From IMG/VR virus record IMGVR_UViG_2585427783_000007: 26,156 bases of DNA, one strand, 5' to 3'. Of the stretch, positions 3,154-17,208 are shown piece by piece. Positions within the stretch are counted from its first letter, which is position 1; each line of letters starts with the position of its first letter. The notes beneath the pieces were generated by a model. The model was not told the origin of the DNA, did not search any database, and was given only the letters and a program-made list of their open reading frames with translations. Both the position numbers and the translations under genes were made by a program. Origin of the DNA: a virus (taxonomy: Duplodnaviria; Heunggongvirae; Uroviricota; Caudoviricetes).

Positions 3154-3432
3154 ATGACCAAAGAGCATGCACAAGGTGTATTTATCCGTTTTATTGATTT
3201 TCGCGGTGAACTGTTATTACGCGCATCAGCCATTGACGGAGTTGTTCCATCCGAAAAAAATGCAGCTACTTACGTTTATCTGAACGGCACGCGCCTGACC
3301 GTAGAACTTCCGTACCAGACTGTACACGAAATCATTAGCGAAGCGGAAAAAGCACGTAAGACTAATGGCGATGAACCCTATATCGAAATTATTTGTATGG
3401 ATTCAGAAGCAGAAATTCAGAAAGCAGATTAA
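3154..3432 (+). CDS. Hypothetical early protein (92 aa)
   Basis: Internal ATG at 3154 (MTKEHAQGVF...) of table ORF 3094..3432, preceded by AGGTG; tightly packed after the previous gene. Confidence 0.55.
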   Translation: MTKEHAQGVFIRFIDFRGELLLRASAIDGVVPSEKNAATYVYLNGTRLTVELPYQTVHEIISEAEKARKTNGDEPYIEIICMDSEAEIQKAD

Positions 3433-3889: not shown

Positions 3890-4300
3890 ATGCACGCAAA
3901 AGAAGAAGGTATCATCAGAGCACTGAAAGAAATTTCAAAGACAGAAAACGAAGTAGCGAAAAAAGCCATAGCAAATAATCATATGGACGTCGCAACCCAC
4001 ACACTGATAGTCGCAAGAGTCACGGCAGAAGCAGCCGAAATTATCGCAAAACAGGATGCTGAACTGGCGGTTCTCAGAACACAACCAGTCACCGGACTGG
4101 ATTTGTCTAACACCGGACGCCTTATTTACACAATTGGCTCAGAGCCACAGCGATACACCATTATCGCCGGATTACAGGACAAATACCTGATCACTCCTTA
4201 CCCCATAAGGGAATCAGCGCTTCTGACAAATCTCCACCTGATAGAGCGCTCTCAGGTCGCATTCATTGATGACGCCCAACACACCGTATTTAACGCATAG
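3890..4300 (+). CDS. Hypothetical early protein (136 aa)
   Basis: ATG at 3890 with GGAG 9 nt upstream; table ORF. Confidence 0.6.
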   Translation: MHAKEEGIIRALKEISKTENEVAKKAIANNHMDVATHTLIVARVTAEAAEIIAKQDAELAVLRTQPVTGLDLSNTGRLIYTIGSEPQRYTIIAGLQDKYLITPYPIRESALLTNLHLIERSQVAFIDDAQHTVFNA

Positions 4301-6089: not shown

Positions 6090-8912
6090 ATGACGGCAGA
6101 GTACCTCAGGGACTGGCAACAACCGCGCCACGCAGTGGGGCGTGAAGGAACGGGGATCCCCGCTCCTGAATCCGCGCTTTCCTCCTGGCTGGATGCCTAC
6201 CGGGCAGAGAACGAGCGCCGCCAGGAAATGGCTGATGCGGCGTTCTCAGCCACGCCGCTGGGCAACCTGATTAATAAAAGCCTGGACGCACAGGAAAAAC
6301 AGGACAAAACCATCACACTGGCAGGAGACGCCAGAAAACAGGCACGTGGCGCGGTGGATGAAGCCATGGCCTCGCTGCGCCTGCTGCCGTCCTATCTGCG
6401 CGATCCGCTTATTCGCCACCTCTCCTTCCTGCGCAAAAAACAGGAAGCCGATCGCCGGAAAGGCAAAAAGAGCTGGCAGGCGGAACGCTATGCACGCGGA
6501 ACCCTGCGCAAAATATTCGAACGTCTGGATAGCACTGACGGACGCTGGCTGACACCGGGTTATCGCTCCCTTGCCGGACGCGAACGCCTGGACGATTTGC
6601 TTTACCTGCCGCAGCTCAACAAACACCAGATACAGACGCTGGCCACCATGACGGCGGCGATGTTCAGCAGCACCTTCGAAAAACTCTGCGATGGCTTTGG
6701 CGCGACCGATGGCGAGCTGACCATGGATGTAACCCTGAAGGCGTATCAGATGCTGGCCCGCATGGCGTTACACCTGCACGCCATGCCTCCACATTATGAC
6801 GCACTGACAACAGACAAAGACCGGAGGAACGAACCGGACACGGAGCTGCTGCCGGGCGCAATCCTTCGCCTGACCTGTGCGGAATGGTGGAAACGCAAAC
6901 TGTGGCTGTTACGTTGCGAGTGGAGAGAAGAACAACTCCGCGCCGCCTGTCTGGTTTCCAGAAAAACATCACCCTATCTGAGCCAGGACGCGTTAAGCGA
7001 GTTTCGCGCACAGCGCGAGAAAACACGCGATTTCCTGAAAAGTTTCATGCTGGAAAATGAAGACGGGTTCACGATTGATCTCGAGACAGTGTATTACGCG
7101 GGAGTAAGTAACCCGGTTCACCGTAAGGCAGAAATGATGGCCACCATGAAGGGACTGGAACTTCTGGCCGAAGCCCGTGGCGACAAAGCGGTGTTTCTGA
7201 CTGTCACCTGCCCGTCAAAATACCACGCCACAACGGAGAACGGTCATCCGAATCCCAAATGGAACGGGGCCACAATGCGCGACTCCAGCGATTACCTGGT
7301 TAACACGTTTTTTGCGGCGGTCCGCAAAAAACTGAACCGCGACGGCCTGCGCTGGTATGGCATCCGCACGGTGGAGCCTCATCATGACGGCACCGTGCAC
7401 TGGCATATGATGGTCTTTGCACATCCGGAAGAAATCGACACCATTGTGTCCCATACCCGCGATATTGCCATTCAGGAAGACCGCCACGAGCTGGGCAATG
7501 ATATTACTCCGCGCTTTAAGGTGGAGTATGTCGACGGCTCAAAAGGCACGCCAACCAGCTACATCGCCACCTACATCGGAAAGAACCTGGACAGCCGCGC
7601 CGTGGATGGCATCGACCCGAAAACGGGCAAGCCACGCATGGACCACGAAACCGGAAAATCAATGGCCGAGAGCGTGGAGCGCGCCATCGGCTGGGCGCGC
7701 CTTCACCGGGTCCGTCAGTTCCAGTTCTTTGGCATCCCCTCCCGTCAGGTGTGGCGTGAACTGCGCCGCCTTGCCAGCCAGATGGCACGCAATCCGGAAG
7801 GCCCGCAACGGCTGAAAGATGATGCAATGGATGCGGTACTCGCTGCCGCCGATGCCGGGTGTTTTGCCACCTACATTGAAAAACAGGGTGGCGTGCTTGT
7901 TCCACGCAAGGACTACCTGATTCGCACCGCCTACGACCTCGCAGATGAGCTGAACGATTACGGCGAACAGAGCGTACAGATTTACGGGATCTGGTCACCA
8001 CTCATCGGGGAATCCTCCCGTGTGTGCACGCATCCGGATAACTGGAAGCTGGTAAGACGTAAACCGGAAGCGGAAGACAGCGCCCGCGAAAATGGTTTTG
8101 ACCTTCAGGACGGCCCTGCCGCCCCTTGGACTCGTGGCAATAACTGTCCCCGTGTACAGGAAACGGACAACAACGGGACAGAACAGCCGGAAGAACGGCC
8201 AGCACCGTGGCCGCAGCTTCCTGACGGCGTTGACGTGAACGAATGGATGCGCTCACTGAAACGGCACGAACGCCGGGCGCTGATGCGTTCGCTGCGTGAC
8301 AAACAGGCAAAAAACAGCAGTGATGAAATGCAGAGCTGGACACAGAGCCGCAAACAGCAGCGGCCTTTGCCTGATAACCACGAATTACTCGCTAAAGAAT
8401 GGCGGGAATCTGCCGAATCTCTCGGCCTGCATATCGGTGAACAGCAGATGCAGCACCTGTTACGGGGCGGCAGCCTGTACGTTGACGGCAGCATCATTGC
8501 ACCGCAGGGATTTGAAATTGTACGCAAACCGGATACCCGCCCGGACAGCCGAATCACGCAGCTCTGGCAGCGCCTGAGCCGTAATCACGGCGTAAGCAGC
8601 ACGGAGATCCGCCATAACCCGGTCGCCAGCTATCTGGAACAGCTGGGGGCATCAGACCCCGAAGCCGCCGCACGTCTGGCATCCACACTTCAGCAGGACC
8701 AGAACACCATGACCCCCCCCGTTACCGTGCTTTCTGACATGCTGCGCGCCATCCGCGACGCAGAGCACGCACAGAGAATCAGTGAAACCACTGAACGTGC
8801 CCGCCGCAAAGCAGACCTGCTGCGGGGTGGCCTGACCAGTGGAAACAAAAAACAGACAGAAACGGGATTCACAAATCCCGTAAATGAGCAAAAAACGCGC
8901 CGCGATATATGA
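6090..8912 (+). CDS. A: Rolling-circle replication initiator (P2 gpA-like), 940 aa with extended C-terminus
   Basis: HUH motif in EPHHDGTVHWHMMVF and paired-tyrosine motif YIATYIGKN; N-terminal and core resemblance to P2 gpA as recalled; about 180 aa longer than the ~760-aa P2 protein. Confidence 0.9.
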   Translation: MTAEYLRDWQQPRHAVGREGTGIPAPESALSSWLDAYRAENERRQEMADAAFSATPLGNLINKSLDAQEKQDKTITLAGDARKQARGAVDEAMASLRLLPSYLRDPLIRHLSFLRKKQEADRRKGKKSWQAERYARGTLRKIFERLDSTDGRWLTPGYRSLAGRERLDDLLYLPQLNKHQIQTLATMTAAMFSSTFEKLCDGFGATDGELTMDVTLKAYQMLARMALHLHAMPPHYDALTTDKDRRNEPDTELLPGAILRLTCAEWWKRKLWLLRCEWREEQLRAACLVSRKTSPYLSQDALSEFRAQREKTRDFLKSFMLENEDGFTIDLETVYYAGVSNPVHRKAEMMATMKGLELLAEARGDKAVFLTVTCPSKYHATTENGHPNPKWNGATMRDSSDYLVNTFFAAVRKKLNRDGLRWYGIRTVEPHHDGTVHWHMMVFAHPEEIDTIVSHTRDIAIQEDRHELGNDITPRFKVEYVDGSKGTPTSYIATYIGKNLDSRAVDGIDPKTGKPRMDHETGKSMAESVERAIGWARLHRVRQFQFFGIPSRQVWRELRRLASQMARNPEGPQRLKDDAMDAVLAAADAGCFATYIEKQGGVLVPRKDYLIRTAYDLADELNDYGEQSVQIYGIWSPLIGESSRVCTHPDNWKLVRRKPEAEDSARENGFDLQDGPAAPWTRGNNCPRVQETDNNGTEQPEERPAPWPQLPDGVDVNEWMRSLKRHERRALMRSLRDKQAKNSSDEMQSWTQSRKQQRPLPDNHELLAKEWRESAESLGLHIGEQQMQHLLRGGSLYVDGSIIAPQGFEIVRKPDTRPDSRITQLWQRLSRNHGVSSTEIRHNPVASYLEQLGASDPEAAARLASTLQQDQNTMTPPVTVLSDMLRAIRDAEHAQRISETTERARRKADLLRGGLTSGNKKQTETGFTNPVNEQKTRRDI

Positions 8913-8988: not shown

Positions 8989-9948
8989 ATGAAAATTTGT
9001 ATCGACGACGGCTCCACCAACATCAAGCTGGCATGGACTGAGAATGGCGAACGCCGCAACGCCATCAGCCCGAACAGCTTCAAGTCGGAATGGTCTGCGC
9101 CGTTCGGTGGCATGCAGCCCGCGAACTACATGCTTGATGGCGTGCGCTATGGTTTTGATCCGGTTAGCGATCGCTTTGTCCAGACGACCGACACGCAATA
9201 CCAGTACAGCGATGTGAATGTAATCGCCATTCATCACGCGCTGGTCAAATCAGGCATCACGCCACAGGAGGTGGATGTGGTTGTCACCCTGCCACTGAGC
9301 GAGTATTTCGACACAAACGCACAGCCGGACATGGCCAACATCAACCGCAAAAAAGCGAACGTTATGCGCCCGGTGGAGTACCAGAACGGCGAAGCATTCA
9401 CTATCCGTAACGTGCGGGTTATGCCTGAATCCATTCCGGCTGGCTTTAAAGCACTGGCTGACATGAGTCCGTTTGAATCCCTGCTGATTGTGGATTTAGG
9501 CGGAACCACGCTGGATGTGGCAAAGGTTCAGGGGCAACTGGCAGGTATCAGCCAGGTGTTTTGCGATCCACACGTAGGCGTCTCCCTGATGGCCGGTGCC
9601 GTGCTGTCGGTGATGGCCGCTAACGGTATGCGTACCAGTCACCACATCGCCAATACCATTATCGAACATCGCCATGATGAAGCCTGGTTGCGCCAACACA
9701 TCCACAATGACGCGCATTACGCCAGCCTGATGGCGGTTATTCGTGAAAAGGAAGAAACACTGAAACAACGCGTGATCCGCGCGCTGGCGGGTTTTTCGGG
9801 TTACGGGCGGGTGATGGTTGTCGGTGGCGGGGCGGAGATTGTGGCACCCGCTATCCGCGAAGCCTGCGGAGTTAATGCGACTTTCATCGCGGACGAGGTG
9901 CCACAGTTTGCTCTGGTTAATGGGCTGTACGCAATGGACAAGGAGTAA
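8989..9948 (+). CDS. parM: ParM/StbA-family actin-like segregation ATPase
   Basis: 319 aa; MKICIDDGSTNIKLAW..., ...LLIVDLGGTTLDV..., ...VMVVGGGAEI... are actin/ASKHA phosphate and adenosine motifs; co-linear resemblance over the whole length to plasmid R1 ParM as I recall it. AAGGA RBS 8 nt upstream. Confidence 0.85.
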   Translation: MKICIDDGSTNIKLAWTENGERRNAISPNSFKSEWSAPFGGMQPANYMLDGVRYGFDPVSDRFVQTTDTQYQYSDVNVIAIHHALVKSGITPQEVDVVVTLPLSEYFDTNAQPDMANINRKKANVMRPVEYQNGEAFTIRNVRVMPESIPAGFKALADMSPFESLLIVDLGGTTLDVAKVQGQLAGISQVFCDPHVGVSLMAGAVLSVMAANGMRTSHHIANTIIEHRHDEAWLRQHIHNDAHYASLMAVIREKEETLKQRVIRALAGFSGYGRVMVVGGGAEIVAPAIREACGVNATFIADEVPQFALVNGLYAMDKE

Positions 9949-9952
9949 ACCA

Positions 9953-10267
9953 ATGACGACACCAACCAGACGGATAAGTTTCTATCTGAAGCCAGTCGCC
10001 GTCAATAGTGAACGGGAGGCGTGTAATTACCTCGACAGCCTGCCAGCCTCTGAACGCAGCCGCGCGCAACGCGCGGCCTTTCTGGCCGGGCTGGCACTCA
10101 TAAAACGCGATCCTGCATTTGCCTATTGGTTGGCCGAATGGCCGGAAGAAGGAGCTGCGCCAGCCAAGAATAATATTCAGAGTAAATATGCCAGCACACC
10201 TGCCACCGGAAGCAATCACAGCACTAGCGAGATAAGAAAGAACATTCAGTCATTTTTCCCAGAGTGA
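9953..10267 (+). CDS. parR: ParR-like centromere-binding adaptor (104 aa)
   Basis: ATG at 9953 with AGGAG inside the parM 3' end; N-terminal RRISFYLKP...LDSLPASERSRAQRAAFLAGLAL matches the pattern of the R1 ParR ribbon-helix-helix region as recalled; follows parM as in R1. Confidence 0.7.
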   Translation: MTTPTRRISFYLKPVAVNSEREACNYLDSLPASERSRAQRAAFLAGLALIKRDPAFAYWLAEWPEEGAAPAKNNIQSKYASTPATGSNHSTSEIRKNIQSFFPE

Positions 10268-10722: not shown

Positions 10723-10986
10723 ATGGCAACTTTAACAAAAAAAGAACGGGCATGGTTGAACGAATTACAGGACGTTCTTGATCGCTGCCCATCACCGAAA
10801 AAAATTGGTTTTTACACCATTGGCGATAAAAGCATTTACCTGTATGACCTGCGCCGCATGGATGAAATCATGGAGGCTCTTGATAATCGTTCTTCGATGG
10901 ATTGGTGTGTTGCTGTCCATGATATGAATGCAGGGTTTGATGAAAAGATTTTGTTCCCCTCATCAGTTGAAAGCACAGCAGGATAA
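10723..10986 (+). CDS. Hypothetical acidic protein (87 aa)
   Basis: ATG at 10723, 1 nt after the upstream stop, with AAGGAG 6 nt upstream; last gene before a terminator. Confidence 0.6.
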   Translation: MATLTKKERAWLNELQDVLDRCPSPKKIGFYTIGDKSIYLYDLRRMDEIMEALDNRSSMDWCVAVHDMNAGFDEKILFPSSVESTAG

Positions 10987-11021
10987 GGACCCAGCAAATA
11001 TACACAACCTATAAAACACTA

Positions 11022-11048
11022 AAGCGCCTCAGGGGCGCTTTTTGTTTG
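11022..11048 (+). terminator. Intrinsic terminator ending the parM-parR-unknown operon
   Basis: AAGCGCC-TCAGG-GGCGCTT (7-bp stem) followed by TTTGTTTG, 35 bp after the last stop codon. Confidence 0.55.
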
Positions 11049-11073
11049 CACAAAAGTGCACAAATTTGCACAA
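11047..11073. repeat. Three TGCACAA direct repeats at exact 10-bp phasing
   Basis: TGCACAA at 11047, 11057 and 11067, one helical turn apart, followed by a T7 run; likely a protein-binding array in the cos-proximal region. Confidence 0.4.
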
Positions 11074-11319
11074 TTTTTTTGAACGACTTTTTACCCTTCC
11101 GGCCCGCATGGCGGCTGGATCCGTCAAGGATCCGTGCGTGCACAAAAAAACGCGTTTTTTCTGCGCGCAGGTGACGGGGGAACAGCCCGCGTTTCAGGGG
11201 GTAAATAGCACTCCCTGAACGATGTCGCAGAGATACAACAGAATGGCTGTATTTCTCACGCTGAGCGTGAAAAAGACGTGAGGGCTTTTGATTTGATGGG
11301 GTGGCAGATAAGGCCGTCA

Positions 11320-11350
11320 AAATCGCACTGAGGCGGCGAAAACATGCAGT
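11320..11350. other. Candidate cos (cohesive-end) site
   Basis: GAGGCGGCGAAAACATGCA, about 150 bp from the Q stop, partially resembles the P2/186 cohesive-end sequence as I recall it (roughly 13 of 19 positions). The position between the A-side cargo and Q matches P2. Low confidence; memory-based. Confidence 0.3.
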
Positions 11351-11497
11351 CAGCGCAGTGGGATTGCGTAAGAGTCTGACCGTCGATGATGGCAATAAGC
11401 AGGAAAGCGTCGTGAAATTATCTGATTGATACAGGAGCTGGAGAGTCGGGGCATAAATTTTTTATGCCCCGGCGAAGCAGCAGACAAGCGAAGCGCG

Positions 11498-12544
11498 TCA
11501 GGATGTGGGCTGGGTGTCTAACAGTGCGTAAGGGTTAAAGCGGATCACCTCTTCGCCAAGCCAGTCATTGATGTGCTTCATGGCCTCCATGACAGGCATC
11601 AGCTCGTTAATTGCGTAAACCCGCGCGGCCTTCTCCACATCACCAAACGCACTTTTTTCGCCCGGCATCGCCCCCATCAGTTGCGGCGGAACGCGGTGCG
11701 CAGCCAGCACATCATCACGGGATGCCGCCTTAACATTCATGAACTCATCTTTTGCGGTGATCTGCTGGAACGGCAAAATTTGCACCCCCTCTTTGCCCCC
11801 GTTGGGCGCATGAATGAGCACGTTTTTAAATGCACCACCACCACGCGCACCCTGTAACGTTTCTTTCAGGGAGTCCATGCTTTCGCGGTTTACCTGCGCT
11901 GCACCGATGTAGATGATGCACCCGGCGTGGGATCCGTTGTCGTAGTACAGTTTTCTGAACATGTCCGCCGAATGAGAAAGGCTGGCCGAGAGTAATGCGC
12001 CAAGATATTCCGGCATGCCGTAGATTTCCTGGTTAATATCCGGATTCATCAGGTGGCACACTTTGCCAGGGCGAAACTGGAACGCGTCCTTGCCATCCTG
12101 CACATACCACCATGATTCAAGATCGCTTCCGCGTCGCATGTATTTCGCCAGGGCGTGCCGTAATTTAAGCGGTTCGCCGAGCATATTGCTACGAAGCTCA
12201 AGGAATGCGTTACCGAACACAAACCAGTCCAGCGCCAGCGCCGAGAAATCCTGCCGGGAAAGCAGCGGGTGCGGGATGTAGCAACCGAGTAATACATTGC
12301 GCTTAAAGTAAAGCGCAGACTGATGCCAGGACGTTTGCCGGGCAGCTCTTGCCAGACCGTACCAGTCCACCGGGGTTTCATACCACCGCCCGTTATCAGC
12401 ACAGTACATATTATCCAGCAGGTCATGCCCGGTCAGGCGATAAGGACCATCAAATGTGAATGCACTGAGCGATGATTCTTTCCTGAGCGCATCAGCGAGA
12501 TCAATGCGTGAACTCATGCGCACTTTTTTATTTTTTCTGCTCAT
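11498..12544 (-). CDS. Q: Portal protein (P2 gpQ-like), 348 aa
   Basis: Size and position next to cos and downstream of the terminase on the minus strand; its ATG overlaps the P stop (ATGA). Confidence 0.85.
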   Translation of the reverse strand: MSRKNKKVRMSSRIDLADALRKESSLSAFTFDGPYRLTGHDLLDNMYCADNGRWYETPVDWYGLARAARQTSWHQSALYFKRNVLLGCYIPHPLLSRQDFSALALDWFVFGNAFLELRSNMLGEPLKLRHALAKYMRRGSDLESWWYVQDGKDAFQFRPGKVCHLMNPDINQEIYGMPEYLGALLSASLSHSADMFRKLYYDNGSHAGCIIYIGAAQVNRESMDSLKETLQGARGGGAFKNVLIHAPNGGKEGVQILPFQQITAKDEFMNVKAASRDDVLAAHRVPPQLMGAMPGEKSAFGDVEKAARVYAINELMPVMEAMKHINDWLGEEVIRFNPYALLDTQPTS

Positions 12545-14295
12545 CAGAACTCCATAACCGTGAAACGCTCGTTTTCTCCTTCGCCGCCAATCGGTTCGTT
12601 AATGACAGCAAGCATGGTTGCCCACGCAAGGTCGCCGTGGCTGATCCCCCTCGCTCGGTCCGTTTCGTAAGTGATAAAGCCGCCCGGTGTTTTCACCTTA
12701 CGCACGGCGTTAAAGGCCGCGACCAGCTCGCGTTCGGCGCGATCGTATTCCCACCGCCCGGCACGCATTATTTGCAGCATTTTCAGTACCAGCGACCGTT
12801 TTGATGACAGCGTGAAGGTGTACGGAATAGCAGCAGGGAAAAACCGTTTCACTATCTGATAAACAGCCTCCCCGTTCCCGCCCGTCACATCAATGCCGAT
12901 GTGTTCCACGTTATAGCGACACGTGAACTCTTCAATGACTCTGGCCTGTTCTTCAAACTCCAGCCCCTGAACGCGTCGCGTCTCCACCGTTCGGAAACGG
13001 CCACCAGGAACAGCCGGAGGAACCACCACGGACACAGCACCGCTGTCGCCGTTGCCACTGCTGCCGTTTGCGTCATACCCAATCCATACCGGACGATTCC
13101 CCATCGGGCGGGGAGCAAAAGGTTTCCAGTCTTTCCAGTCGTCGTATCCGTCAACACCGCAGCCAATCAGGATATTCAGGTTAAATGCCGATTCCCCTTC
13201 GCGGACAAACTCACACATATAGAGATTGAGGAACTCGTCTTCGGTGTTTTCATCACGAATTTCGTCGATATCGGTGTGTTTCCAGCCGTGATTAACCACA
13301 TCTTCCAGCGTGACAATTTGCCGCCAAGTCCGGTCAGGGCAGATAAGCCCGTTATGCAGCGTTTTCCAGTCCACAGAAAAACGCTGGCGTTTATGCGAGG
13401 CCTTTTTCTCGTTCCAGCGGTCGCCGTTCCAGTAGGCGTACGCCTCGTGCGTTTCGGTGGATGGCGTGGAGAAGTAGGTGCGCCGCAGTCCGCTGAGGGT
13501 TGCCATAGCGCCAGCCACCTTGCGCAGTTCAGCAAAGCGACTGACCCAGAAAAATTCATCAAAATAAAAATTGCCCGTATAGGACTGTGCCGACGCAGCA
13601 GAAGTGCCGAGAAAATGCAGCTCTGCGCCGTTGGAGAGGATGATTTTATCGCCCCCTTTCAGCTCCACATCAACTTCAGCCGCGACCTTCTGAATAATGC
13701 TTTTAAACTGGAACGCCTGACGACGCGACGCAGACAAAAAAATCTGGTTACGCTGGTAAGGTTGCGCCACATCGTCACGCAGCGCCATCAGCAGAGCTTC
13801 CTGTGCAAAATACCAGGTCGCCCCAATCTGTCGGGATTTCAGGATCATCCTGTTACGTATCCCGGCTTCCCTGCAAAGTGTCAGGGAGTCAAACCAGCCC
13901 CGCTGATGCCACTCCAGCCTGCTGATGATTTTTTCCCGCAGTGCGGCAATCTGTTCCGGCGTGAAATGATTTTTAAGTTTTTTCGCCCGGCCTTTCTTTC
14001 CTGCGGCCATCACATCCGGCTGGCCATCATGCAGCTTTTTAAGCTGCCGGGTCAGCAGGTCTATTTCCTTAAAGTCACCGCCTGTTTTATTCTGTTTTTC
14101 AGTAAGCTGGATGAGGCGCGCATCGATGGACTGCGTGACACGCTGCACGGGGGGCGTTTCATCCCACTGGTCGCGTTTTTTCCACGCATAAATCGTGTTC
14201 GGGTTTATTCCCATCAGACGTGATATTTCTGCGGGCGGATAACCCTGCCAGTAAAGTTGCCGCGCACGCTGGCGCACAAAAGCGTCCTGAATCAT
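12544..14295 (-). CDS. P: Terminase large (ATPase/nuclease) subunit (P2 gpP-like), 583 aa
   Basis: Size and position, divergent from the scaffold gene exactly as P2 P/O; N-terminal HTH-like segment; translationally coupled to the portal gene. Confidence 0.85.
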   Translation of the reverse strand: MIQDAFVRQRARQLYWQGYPPAEISRLMGINPNTIYAWKKRDQWDETPPVQRVTQSIDARLIQLTEKQNKTGGDFKEIDLLTRQLKKLHDGQPDVMAAGKKGRAKKLKNHFTPEQIAALREKIISRLEWHQRGWFDSLTLCREAGIRNRMILKSRQIGATWYFAQEALLMALRDDVAQPYQRNQIFLSASRRQAFQFKSIIQKVAAEVDVELKGGDKIILSNGAELHFLGTSAASAQSYTGNFYFDEFFWVSRFAELRKVAGAMATLSGLRRTYFSTPSTETHEAYAYWNGDRWNEKKASHKRQRFSVDWKTLHNGLICPDRTWRQIVTLEDVVNHGWKHTDIDEIRDENTEDEFLNLYMCEFVREGESAFNLNILIGCGVDGYDDWKDWKPFAPRPMGNRPVWIGYDANGSSGNGDSGAVSVVVPPAVPGGRFRTVETRRVQGLEFEEQARVIEEFTCRYNVEHIGIDVTGGNGEAVYQIVKRFFPAAIPYTFTLSSKRSLVLKMLQIMRAGRWEYDRAERELVAAFNAVRKVKTPGGFITYETDRARGISHGDLAWATMLAVINEPIGGEGENERFTVMEF

Positions 14296-16407: not shown

Positions 16408-17208
16408 ATGATTACCCCTGCACAGCAACACTGGCAGAACGTGATGGCGCAGCGCGCAGGCCGGGCGAATGAAGGCGTGGATCACGCCGCACGTACCGCG
16501 CATGAAGAGGTGCTGTATCGTCTGCGTCTGGCACAGGCCCGACTTAAGGGCGTACAGGCCAGAAGCGCCAAAGCCGCCATCAAAAAAGAGTTGTTACCGG
16601 ACTTTTCCGGCTGGATTGAAGGAACGCTGGAGGCTGACGGCGGGCAGCAAGATGAGGTGATTGCCACGCTGATGGTGTGGGCGATTGACTGCGGCGATCT
16701 TCCGCTGGCATTGCGTATTGGTGCGTATGTGGTCCGTCACAACCTCATCATGCCGGATAACTTTGGCCGTACTGCTGCCACGGTACTGACCGAAGAAATC
16801 TGCAACCCGGTACTGACGCAGGCCGGGACGGATGCCGACGCGGATTTGTCCGCCTTTATCGAACCACTGGACACACTTTGGGAAATTGTCGCCAACCAGG
16901 ATATGCCGGACGAAGTGCGCGCCAAATTATGCAAGGCGTGCGCCTTTGCCCGCCGTGGCCTGAGCGATGCGGACAGCATGGCCTCATCACTGAAGCTGCT
17001 GCGCGAAGCGATGCACCTGAACCCGAACGCAGGTGTGAAACGCGAGATTGCAACCCTTTCCCGCGCCCTGAAAAAAGCCGATTCCGCAGCCGAACCAGAA
17101 GACGCCAGCACACCGCAGGCGCAGGACGAAAGCAGCAAAAGTAAAAAGACAACGCGGAAGCCTGCAACACGAAAAACCACCGCGACGCAGAAGGCGAAGC
17201 GCGGTTAA
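16408..17208 (+). CDS. M: Terminase small subunit (P2 gpM-like)
   Basis: 266 aa; GGAGAGAAAG RBS; resemblance to P2 gpM as recalled (...ELLPDFSGWIEGTLEA..., ...DMPDEVRAKL..., ...NPNAGVKREI...); basic C-terminal tail. Confidence 0.85.
   Translation: MITPAQQHWQNVMAQRAGRANEGVDHAARTAHEEVLYRLRLAQARLKGVQARSAKAAIKKELLPDFSGWIEGTLEADGGQQDEVIATLMVWAIDCGDLPLALRIGAYVVRHNLIMPDNFGRTAATVLTEEICNPVLTQAGTDADADLSAFIEPLDTLWEIVANQDMPDEVRAKLCKACAFARRGLSDADSMASSLKLLREAMHLNPNAGVKREIATLSRALKKADSAAEPEDASTPQAQDESSKSKKTTRKPATRKTTATQKAKRG

Follow-up and report, generated by a model that had tools for sequence, protein, structure and literature searches.

The window analysed here, a 26,156-nucleotide stretch of tailed-phage DNA (IMG/VR record IMGVR_UViG_2585427783_000007), is a P2-family prophage of the P88 type (Xuanwuvirus), as judged from its map of open reading frames (ORFs), from Pfam matches and from the closest phage records, and it carries a non-coding region of 511 bp (10987-11497) between its cargo genes and its portal gene. 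We propose that positions 11047-11206 of this region are the cohesive-end (cos) packaging module of the prophage, in which the architecture of phages P2 and 186 and of the satellite P4 is realised in a different sequence, with the predicted nicking site, cosN, at 11170-11188. We consider this assignment probable. The cut is placed there because of the geometry of a set of repeats, the conservation of the site, the sharing of the segment with satellite-like elements, and several links to the cos site of P2. A reading made from the sequence alone had already taken the stretch for the cos region of a P2-like phage, and the genomic context, the repeat geometry and the sharing with satellite-like elements all agree with that view. 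The cut itself, which that reading had put at about 11330-11348, most likely lies some 157 bp further to the left.

Phased repeats with the geometry of a P2-family cos site

The heptamer TGCACAA occurs on the + strand at 11047, 11057 and 11067 (R1-R3), spaced by 10 bp and followed by a conserved T7-GA tract (the whole spanning 11047-11082), and again at 11139 (R4), where it runs into a series of A residues (11139-11150) and lies 31 nt upstream of the predicted top-strand nick. The sequence-only reading had listed the first three copies, which a sequence check located on the same strand, and had passed over the fourth. Against 1000 dinucleotide-preserving shuffles of 10987-11497, a 7-mer in four copies arose in 1/1000 and a 7-mer triple at an equal spacing of 9-12 nt in 0/1000. 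The seven copies of TGCACAA in the whole window correspond to chance expectation; four of them crowd into 99 bp of this region, in a single orientation. The same shuffles set the inverted repeats of the region apart, both by the longest arm of 11 nt (0/1000, mean 5.7) and by the presence of six inverted repeats with arms of at least 7 nt (0/1000, mean 0.2). A pair of direct repeats, GGATCCGT, is unremarkable when taken alone (60/1000).

Measured from position 11170, the four TGCACAA copies lie at -123/-113/-103/-31. The corresponding word TGCAT is found at -123/-111/-101/-29 from the annotated cut in P2 and at -124/-111/-101/-29 in both 186 and the satellite P4, the cut sites of all three having been taken from annotation or from the ends of the records. 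A same-strand TGCAY array at about -124/-111/-101/-29 from the top-strand cut, a criterion that we derived in this analysis from P2, 186 and P4, is present in the window, and the TGCAT form of this geometry recurs in 76 phage loci and 19 portal-less (P4-like) loci, all unique, that carry a P2-type 19-mer. Across 135 unique loci of the 19-mer described below, YGCAYA stands at -123 in 79%, at -113 in 93% and at -103 in 94%, and R4 stands at -31 in 96%. The counterpart of R4 in P2, 186 and P4 is TGCATTAAAACC at -29, the point at which their conserved 55-bp core begins (Ziermann and Calendar 1990, as cited in passages of PMC5694545 and PMC9594776). R4 is kept across lineages, with TGCACAA replaced by TGCACGA in one satellite lineage and in a prophage that we refer to as ES1, both of which are introduced below.

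Because of their 10-bp spacing, R1-R3 lie on one face of the helix. By analogy with P2, 186 and P4, we predict that they are terminase-recognition sites and that they form the left boundary of the cos module. Among the motifs that the sequence-only reading took for probable terminase and host-factor sites, the phased copies are the best candidates for terminase recognition, a choice favoured by their P2/186/P4-like positions and by their location within the segment shared with satellites. A separate observation concerns the right end of P2 (L006, about 1425-1475), where the annotated start of the - strand old-tin mRNA makes the promoter -35 element coincide with the first TGCAT repeat in the right arm of cos; in that phage, terminase may recognise DNA that also serves to transcribe the cargo.

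The predicted nicking site

The predicted cosN occupies 11163-11188 and consists of the nick context GCGCGCA followed by a predicted 5' cohesive end of 19 nt, GGTGACGGGGGAACAGCCC (11170-11188), which is present in a single copy in the window. We compared 73 unique relatives that had been picked through an identical portal protein, and not through this 19-mer; of the 432 intervals of 19 nt in the comparison, 11170-11188 is the sole one to be fully invariant. More divergent phages tell a similar story. The Novemvirus phage phiT5282H and about 36 other divergent relatives keep R1-R3 with the T7GA tract, R4, and a 26-bp block around the 19-mer that is invariant between the window phage and Novemvirus, while the DNA from the 19-mer to the portal gene is about 60% identical to that of the Novemvirus-like relatives. 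Where the 19-mer turns up by chance, at eight places in unrelated metagenomic DNA rich in GC, TGCAC repeats are missing, so the association between repeats and 19-mer is not an artefact of the search.

The nick contexts provide a link to P2. Read from the sequences, the top-strand context of P2 is GCGGGCG^GG and its bottom-strand context GCGCGCA^G (the caret marking the nick). Both recur around 11170-11188 with a 19-nt stagger, the top strand reading GCGCGCA^GG and the bottom strand CGCG^GGC. A further link comes from ES1, a P2-family prophage of E. coli (L211, about 4035-4053), whose 19-mer GGTGACGGGGGGAAAGCCC matches that of the window at 17/19 and that of P2 at 15/19, and would represent a cohesive end intermediate between the P88 and P2 types. 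The first two repeats of ES1 are degenerate (TGCAAGA, TGCGCAA), and its left arm is P2-like, with about 183 nt to the portal stop codon.

The ends of assembled sequences give a weak physical hint of a cut in this neighbourhood. Two metagenomic contigs of genome length end just beyond the 19-mer, PPYF01370356.1 (L421, positions 1-22; 32,523 bp) at 3 nt past it and ERZ1643251 NODE-1134 (L437, positions 1-41; 31,753 bp) at 22 nt past it, and three further contig ends lie at -61, -49 and +58. By a rough estimate, such ends outnumber what random breaks would produce.

Several results weigh against the proposed site or against its exact register. The match between GGTGACGGGGGAACAGCCC and the P2 cohesive end GGCGAGGCGGGGAAAGCAC is 13/19, which by itself is at chance level, and the 55-bp core compared in register with P2 agrees at 27/55 positions, as against 48/55 between P2 and 186 and 52/55 between P2 and P4; the core sequence that unites P2, 186 and P4 is not conserved in the window. 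Near-invariance extends over 11156-11199, where at most 2 of the 73 sequences differ at any site, and the invariant 19-nt run is bounded by rare variants alone. The distances from the repeats to the cut differ from those of P2 by 0-2 nt, which leaves room for an error of about two bases in the predicted nicks. A blastn search with 65 bp around 11170 against 50,697 phage records (E<=10) gave internal matches only, with no record ending at either candidate site, and a scan of IMG/VR and metagenome contigs gave no end exactly at the 19-mer. The contig ends that do fall nearby could be assembly breaks at a repeat common to helper and satellite. Finally, when TGCAC-type and TGCAT-type phages are compared, the identities are 58%/36% for the small terminase subunit gpM and 78%/46% for the N-terminal helix-turn-helix (HTH) of the large subunit gpP; both follow phylogeny and so do not tell which subunit reads the repeats.

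Sharing of the module with satellite-like islands

Elements without terminase or portal genes carry the same module. In E. coli mip270_22 (L213, NZ_CM132655.1, about 2,727,200-2,739,800), an island of 12-13 kb lies between hpt and gcd and encodes two integrases, an Icd-like protein, an 889-aa Toprim protein, an Ogr/Delta zinc finger and a P2-family capsid; there are no portal, terminase or tail genes among its encoded proteins. Islands of this type occur in 55 of 5426 complete E. coli genomes. The mip270_22 island and contig L363 share with the window only 11047-11206, the island at 82% identity (blastn), and with the cos region of the island as query, the module of about 165 bp is the only part that matches in some 410 further E. 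coli genomes. A second lineage, represented by the metagenomic contigs L430 (OFEI01000080.1, 12.9 kb) and L371, has the same gene order and shares only 151-177 bp with phiT5282H, a segment that runs from R1 to 9-33 nt past the 19-mer.

According to passages of PMC9122126, cos is the only homologous region of P4 and P2, and the relation between island and helper-type phage mirrors this one in that the cos module is the only DNA they share. Elements that would have to borrow a terminase keep just this module, and the site preferred by the sequence-only reading lies outside it. We infer that the islands are mobilised by P88-like and Novemvirus-like helpers of the kind described here.

Other properties of these islands can be noted. 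Similar ones are found in L363, L391 and L399, and the common order is integrase, Ash or Icd-like protein, 889-aa Toprim protein, second integrase, cos module, Ogr/Delta protein and major capsid protein (418-423 aa). Neither Sid nor Psu is annotated in them, and we found no description of these satellites in the literature searched. The cos module of each satellite lineage matches a different lineage of helper-type phages.

Alternative readings of the region

The sequence-only reading took as the cohesive-end site GAGGCGGCGAAAACATGCA, which does lie at 11330-11348 (feature 11327-11348 on the + strand, 11327-11345 in P2 register), and regarded the repeats and palindromes 190-280 bp to its left as distal terminase or host-factor sites. 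The site has a 13/19 ungapped match to P2 with a contiguous GAGGCGG.GAAA.CA core, stands 153 nt from the portal stop codon, near the 168 nt of P2, and aligns in part with GTTGAGGCGTTG, located at about +93 of P2, as well as with an element that other lineages conserve weakly (...GCGCTGAGGCG...). Matches of this quality are, however, common in the window: the predicted cohesive end, the GAGGCGGCGAAAACATGCA site and about six other places match the P2 19-mer at 13/19, and a place inside a gene region, at 3337, matches at 15/19. Because the window holds about eight matches at 13/19, similarity to the 19-mer decides nothing between the two sites, and we rejected similarity to the P2/186 19-mer as a criterion for cosN. 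The site is also variable, with eight variable columns and a 1-nt insertion in 6/73 close relatives, and 288 of the 432 intervals are better conserved; Novemvirus-like relatives, which have the repeats, keep a partial motif that aligns (...GGCGCTGAGGCG...) with no recognisable cos-like sequence; and the satellites that carry the module lack the site. A cut there would put the repeats at -280 to -188 instead of the family-typical -124 to -29. P4 has no counterpart of the left-arm element that the site overlaps, yet passages of PMC9122126 describe it as packaged by P2. We conclude that GAGGCGGCGAAAACATGCA is most likely not the cut site and that the arrangement built on it is quite improbable. 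Its host-factor sites find no support either, as the consensus for integration host factor (IHF), WATCAANNNNTTR, has no match with <=1 mismatch on either strand of 11040-11260. An unlikely, though more serious, objection is that 11047-11206 is the packaging signal and the cut lies elsewhere, with the nicks offset, with an overhang of another length, or with the invariant block serving as a terminase-binding site next to the point of cleavage. The register is assigned by analogy, and the small differences in repeat distance, the breadth of the near-invariant block and contig ends at +3 and +22 rather than at 0 would all fit such an offset. It has to be set against the 19-nt ends of P2, 186 and P4, the characterised enterobacterial members recorded, against the recurrence of both P2 nick contexts at an exact 19-nt stagger, and against ES1, whose intermediate sequence favours the in-register alignment.

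Two further readings dispense with packaging or assign the region to expression. The cargo encodes a ParM/StbA protein (8989-9948) and an StbB-family protein (9953-10267), and type II partition loci such as parMRC of plasmid R1 use arrays of short phased direct repeats, which would allow the TGCACAA copies to be a parC-like centromere or an operator for the cargo genes. The distribution of the repeats led us to reject this, and we regard it as very improbable: they persist in relatives with different cargo, in a conserved block that starts at 11047; they follow directly after the replication gene in phiT5282H, which has no ParM there; the satellites keep them; and P2, 186 and P4 have TGCAT repeats of equal geometry. 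In addition, parC usually lies upstream of parM, whereas here the last partition gene comes first and the array follows 1.1 kb further on. It is just as hard to credit that the region encodes a small protein, from the 42-codon GTG ORF at 11301-11429 or from a - strand ORF of 128 codons, or that it gives rise to a small RNA whose structure includes the palindromes as hairpins. Hypothetical proteins are annotated here in P88, PhiR44_2 and P884B11, and several of the hairpins fold better than shuffled sequence. In the two mechanical ORFs (11009-11395 on the - strand and 11042-11218 on the + strand) and the 42-codon ORF, which is annotated in some phage records, the variable columns nevertheless fall without third-position excess (42/42/41, 15/20/15 and 18/19/15 by codon position), and relatives carry frameshifts, in-frame stops and start-codon losses; on these counts and broken frames we rejected coding potential for all three. 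RefSeq gene annotation is absent from the region in nearly all E. coli genomes among the matches listed. With Rfam at a permissive threshold there were sub-threshold matches only, to gyrA RNA (22 bits against a gathering score of 45) and SprD, and a sigma-70 promoter scan found no site inside the region. The earlier description of the stretch as gene-free therefore holds, and the cos module with cosN at 11170-11188 remains the reading that we prefer.

Flanking genes and the cargo boundary

From its left end the prophage carries an integrase, the gpA replication protein (6090-8912, PF05840) and, next to gpA, the cargo at 8989-10267, which Pfam assigns to the ParM/StbA and StbB families; two ORFs without known identity lie between the StbB gene and the region and end at 10986. 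To the right of the region, on the opposite strand, follow portal Q (11498-12544, PF04860), the large terminase gpP (12544-14295; Terminase_6N/6C with an N-terminal Terminase_5 HTH), scaffold and capsid genes, and a gpM-type small terminase (16408-17208, PF05944). These flanks, in which ParM/StbB-type cargo precedes the region and the portal, terminase and capsid genes come after it, are as the sequence-only reading had described them. The region thus sits between the gpA-side hotspot and the 3' end of Q, beside P2-type portal and terminase genes, and P2 and 186 annotate the same order and orientation of cos, tQ/tW terminator and portal gene. The nearest phage records, P88 and its relatives (Peduoviridae, Xuanwuvirus), are 91-96% identical over the region, which is found in 1142 of 5426 complete E. 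coli genomes (about 21%). P88 and PhiR44_2 likewise carry the ParM/StbA and StbB genes, under the annotations 'recombinase' and 'partitioning protein'; it is unusual for an integrating phage of the P2 kind to have a type II partition system.

The interval between gpA and gpQ that adjoins cos is described in passages of Rousset et al. 2022 (PMC9122126) as a known hotspot for cargo, and in the 186-type arrangement retrons take the place of the DNA that separates a terminator from cos (Dodd and Egan 1996, cited by PMC5694545). Conservation with the window sets in at 11047, where R1 starts, in 36 of 84 fetched loci and in most of the E. coli matches listed; in the other loci homology begins at most 60 nt further left. 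From these alignments, the DNA to the left of 11047 belongs to the variable cargo. It includes an intrinsic terminator of the cargo operon on the + strand at 11021-11046, called by a terminator scan and absent from the motifs of the sequence-only reading, with a hairpin at 11021-11041 followed by a T-rich tail; its RNA fold has -14.4 kcal/mol (z = -3.0), and terminator t95b stands in the equivalent place in phage 186. The hotspot and the 186 retron arrangement are similar in that the variable cargo closes with a terminator, directly after which the conserved cos block begins. The hotspot and retron papers treat the cargo rather than the anatomy of cos, and the passages that we searched refer to the 55-bp core alone and do not describe the repeats.

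The left arm, which covers the 309 nt to the right of the module and ends at the hairpin of the Q operon, is about 130 nt longer than in P2, 186 and ES1. In PhiR44_2 (L001, 3587-4111) the tQ hairpin and the portal gene are separated by an inserted ORF of 525 bp, and in about 16 of 196 loci of the 19-mer the portal gene lies 600-940 nt downstream, compared with the usual distance of about 320; both observations suggest that the left arm of cos holds another insertion spot, smaller than the first.

Other repeats and hairpins

The motifs listed by the sequence-only reading are all in place, and their evolutionary behaviour differs. The two copies of GGATCCGT, at 11117 and 11128 (11117-11135, + strand), lie in the spacer and are specific to the P88 lineage; they are invariant in P88-like relatives, are not kept in Novemvirus-like relatives or in the E. 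coli satellite-like island, and are probably dispensable for packaging. The 16-bp palindrome AAAAAACGCGTTTTTT (A6CGCGT6, 11145-11160) is perfect and lies between R4 and cosN, where P2, 186 and P4 have a GC-rich dyad. T-to-C or G-to-A changes disrupt it in many close relatives, and Novemvirus-like relatives lack it. To the right of the cohesive end, GCGTTTCAGGGGGTAAAT (11189-11206) is the last stretch shared with the E. coli satellite-like islands (blastn), and the inverted repeat TTCAGGGGGT / ACTCCCTGAA (11193-11219) lies just past cosN with a fold z of -4.2; its second arm is not shared with the satellites.

Further along the left arm, the palindrome TCACGCT-G-AGCGTGA (11256-11270), which extends to 11249-11277 at 86%, is kept only in P88-like relatives, where its variants are non-compensatory, and is absent in other lineages. 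A weakly conserved element, ...CAGAATGGCGCTGAGGCG... (window 11310-11345, also in L004 and other loci; +85 to +105 in P2), underlies the GAGGCGGCGAAAACATGCA site; it takes a hairpin-like form, GCGCC...GGCGC, in some lineages and in 186 at about +60, and is absent from P4 and from the new satellites. Downstream of portal Q, on the - strand, a perfect inverted repeat with 11-nt arms (11447-11471) forms an 11-bp stem 27 nt past the Q stop codon, with -22.2 kcal/mol on that strand (z = -5.1). It has no U-tract on either strand, and a consensus terminator scan makes no call there; other lineages have a different, unrelated GC-rich hairpin in the same position. By position, this hairpin would correspond to the annotated tQ of P2 and tW of 186. 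The palindromes, all of which had been taken for packaging sites, are therefore a mixed set: the one at 11447-11471 matches the tQ position, the one at 11145-11160 is not conserved, and the one at 11256-11270 is confined to the P88 lineage.

Discussion

In the mechanism that we propose, a terminase composed of gpM as the small subunit and gpP, with its N-terminal HTH, as the large subunit would recognise the four same-strand TGCACAA sites in the right arm, with R1-R3 presented on one helical face beside an intrinsically bent T-tract and R4 placed at a distance of three helical turns from the cut. Nicking of the top strand at GCGCGCA^GG and of the bottom strand at CGCG^GGC, with a stagger of 19 nt, would then generate 5'-protruding cohesive ends of sequence GGTGACGGGGGAACAGCCC. 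The binding of terminase to the repeats, the subunit that binds, the exact positions of the nicks and the 5' polarity of the overhang are all drawn here by analogy with related systems. The reader of the repeats could be either gpM or the N-terminal HTH of gpP (Terminase_5). The latter domain, also matched by HTH_23, occupies residues 1-63 of gpP (12547-14295, - strand), and its putative recognition-helix stretch is identical in the window and in phiT5282H, both of the TGCAC type, and different in P2, of the TGCAT type. The gpP HTH is a candidate reader alongside gpM.

The correspondence with P2, 186 and P4 is one of layout. In the window as in P2 and 186, a cargo hotspot is followed by cos, by a hairpin at the place of the tQ/tW terminator, and then by portal Q and terminase P, which are encoded by the other strand. 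In P4 too, the cut is preceded by four TGCAY sites of one orientation, with a dyad between the last site and the cut; a G-rich 19-mer is framed by GCGCGC-type nick contexts; and the module is the only DNA held in common with satellite elements. The differences lie in the sequence and in details of phasing. The repeat word is TGCAC(AA) in the window and TGCAT in P2, 186 and P4, R1-R3 are phased strictly at 10/10 bp instead of 12-13/10 bp, and a T7 tract follows R3 in the window, unlike in the other three. The cohesive ends of the window phage are predicted here from sequence, and compared with P2 the 19-mer agrees at 13/19 and the 55-bp core at 27/55. Because of this core identity and the different repeat word, we regard the site as a sequence-divergent variant of the P2-family cos and not as a member of the P2/186/P4 core group, and it probably confers a packaging specificity distinct from theirs.

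A comparison with the cos site of phage λ is also instructive. The λ site (cosQ-cosN-cosB) combines a partly two-fold symmetric nicking site with short repeated terminase sites on one flank, a logic like that of the window. It differs in having 12-nt ends and R sites of mixed orientation, which are read by the small terminase subunit and have an IHF site among them, and there is no sequence relationship between the two sites, whose terminase proteins belong to different families. P2, for its part, has been reported to package from monomeric circles. Whereas cosB of the λ type has an IHF site among its R sites, the window has no IHF consensus between the repeats and the cut, and the conserved T7 tract may supply intrinsic curvature in place of IHF.

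We found no description of a cos site for the P88 lineage in the literature searched; the P88 paper makes no mention of cos, and cos annotation is absent from the phage and genome records that we examined for P88-like prophages. Judged by title and abstract, none of the papers found for Xuanwuvirus is about the biology of the phage. For sites of this kind, short matches to a known cohesive end are unreliable, and repeat geometry and a segment shared with satellites are better markers of cos.

The understanding of cos packaging itself is unchanged by these results; the element is of an ordinary, well-understood kind in a divergent sequence. If correct, the assignment sets the natural start of the genome and fixes 11047 as the point where the cargo and defence hotspot beside cos ends on the right. 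It would also reduce the DNA needed for cosmids or transducing particles with a P88-like helper to some 160 bp, and it predicts which satellites a given helper can package. A broader proposal, which we put forward tentatively and would not yet favour over its negation, is that the module of TGCAC repeats and GGTGACGGGGGAACAGCCC defines a second packaging-specificity class of the P2 family. This class would be carried by about a fifth of complete E. coli genomes and by Novemvirus-like phages of other enterobacteria, would be orthogonal to that of P2, 186 and P4, and would have dedicated satellites of its own, with cos modules that track the lineage of the presumed helper.

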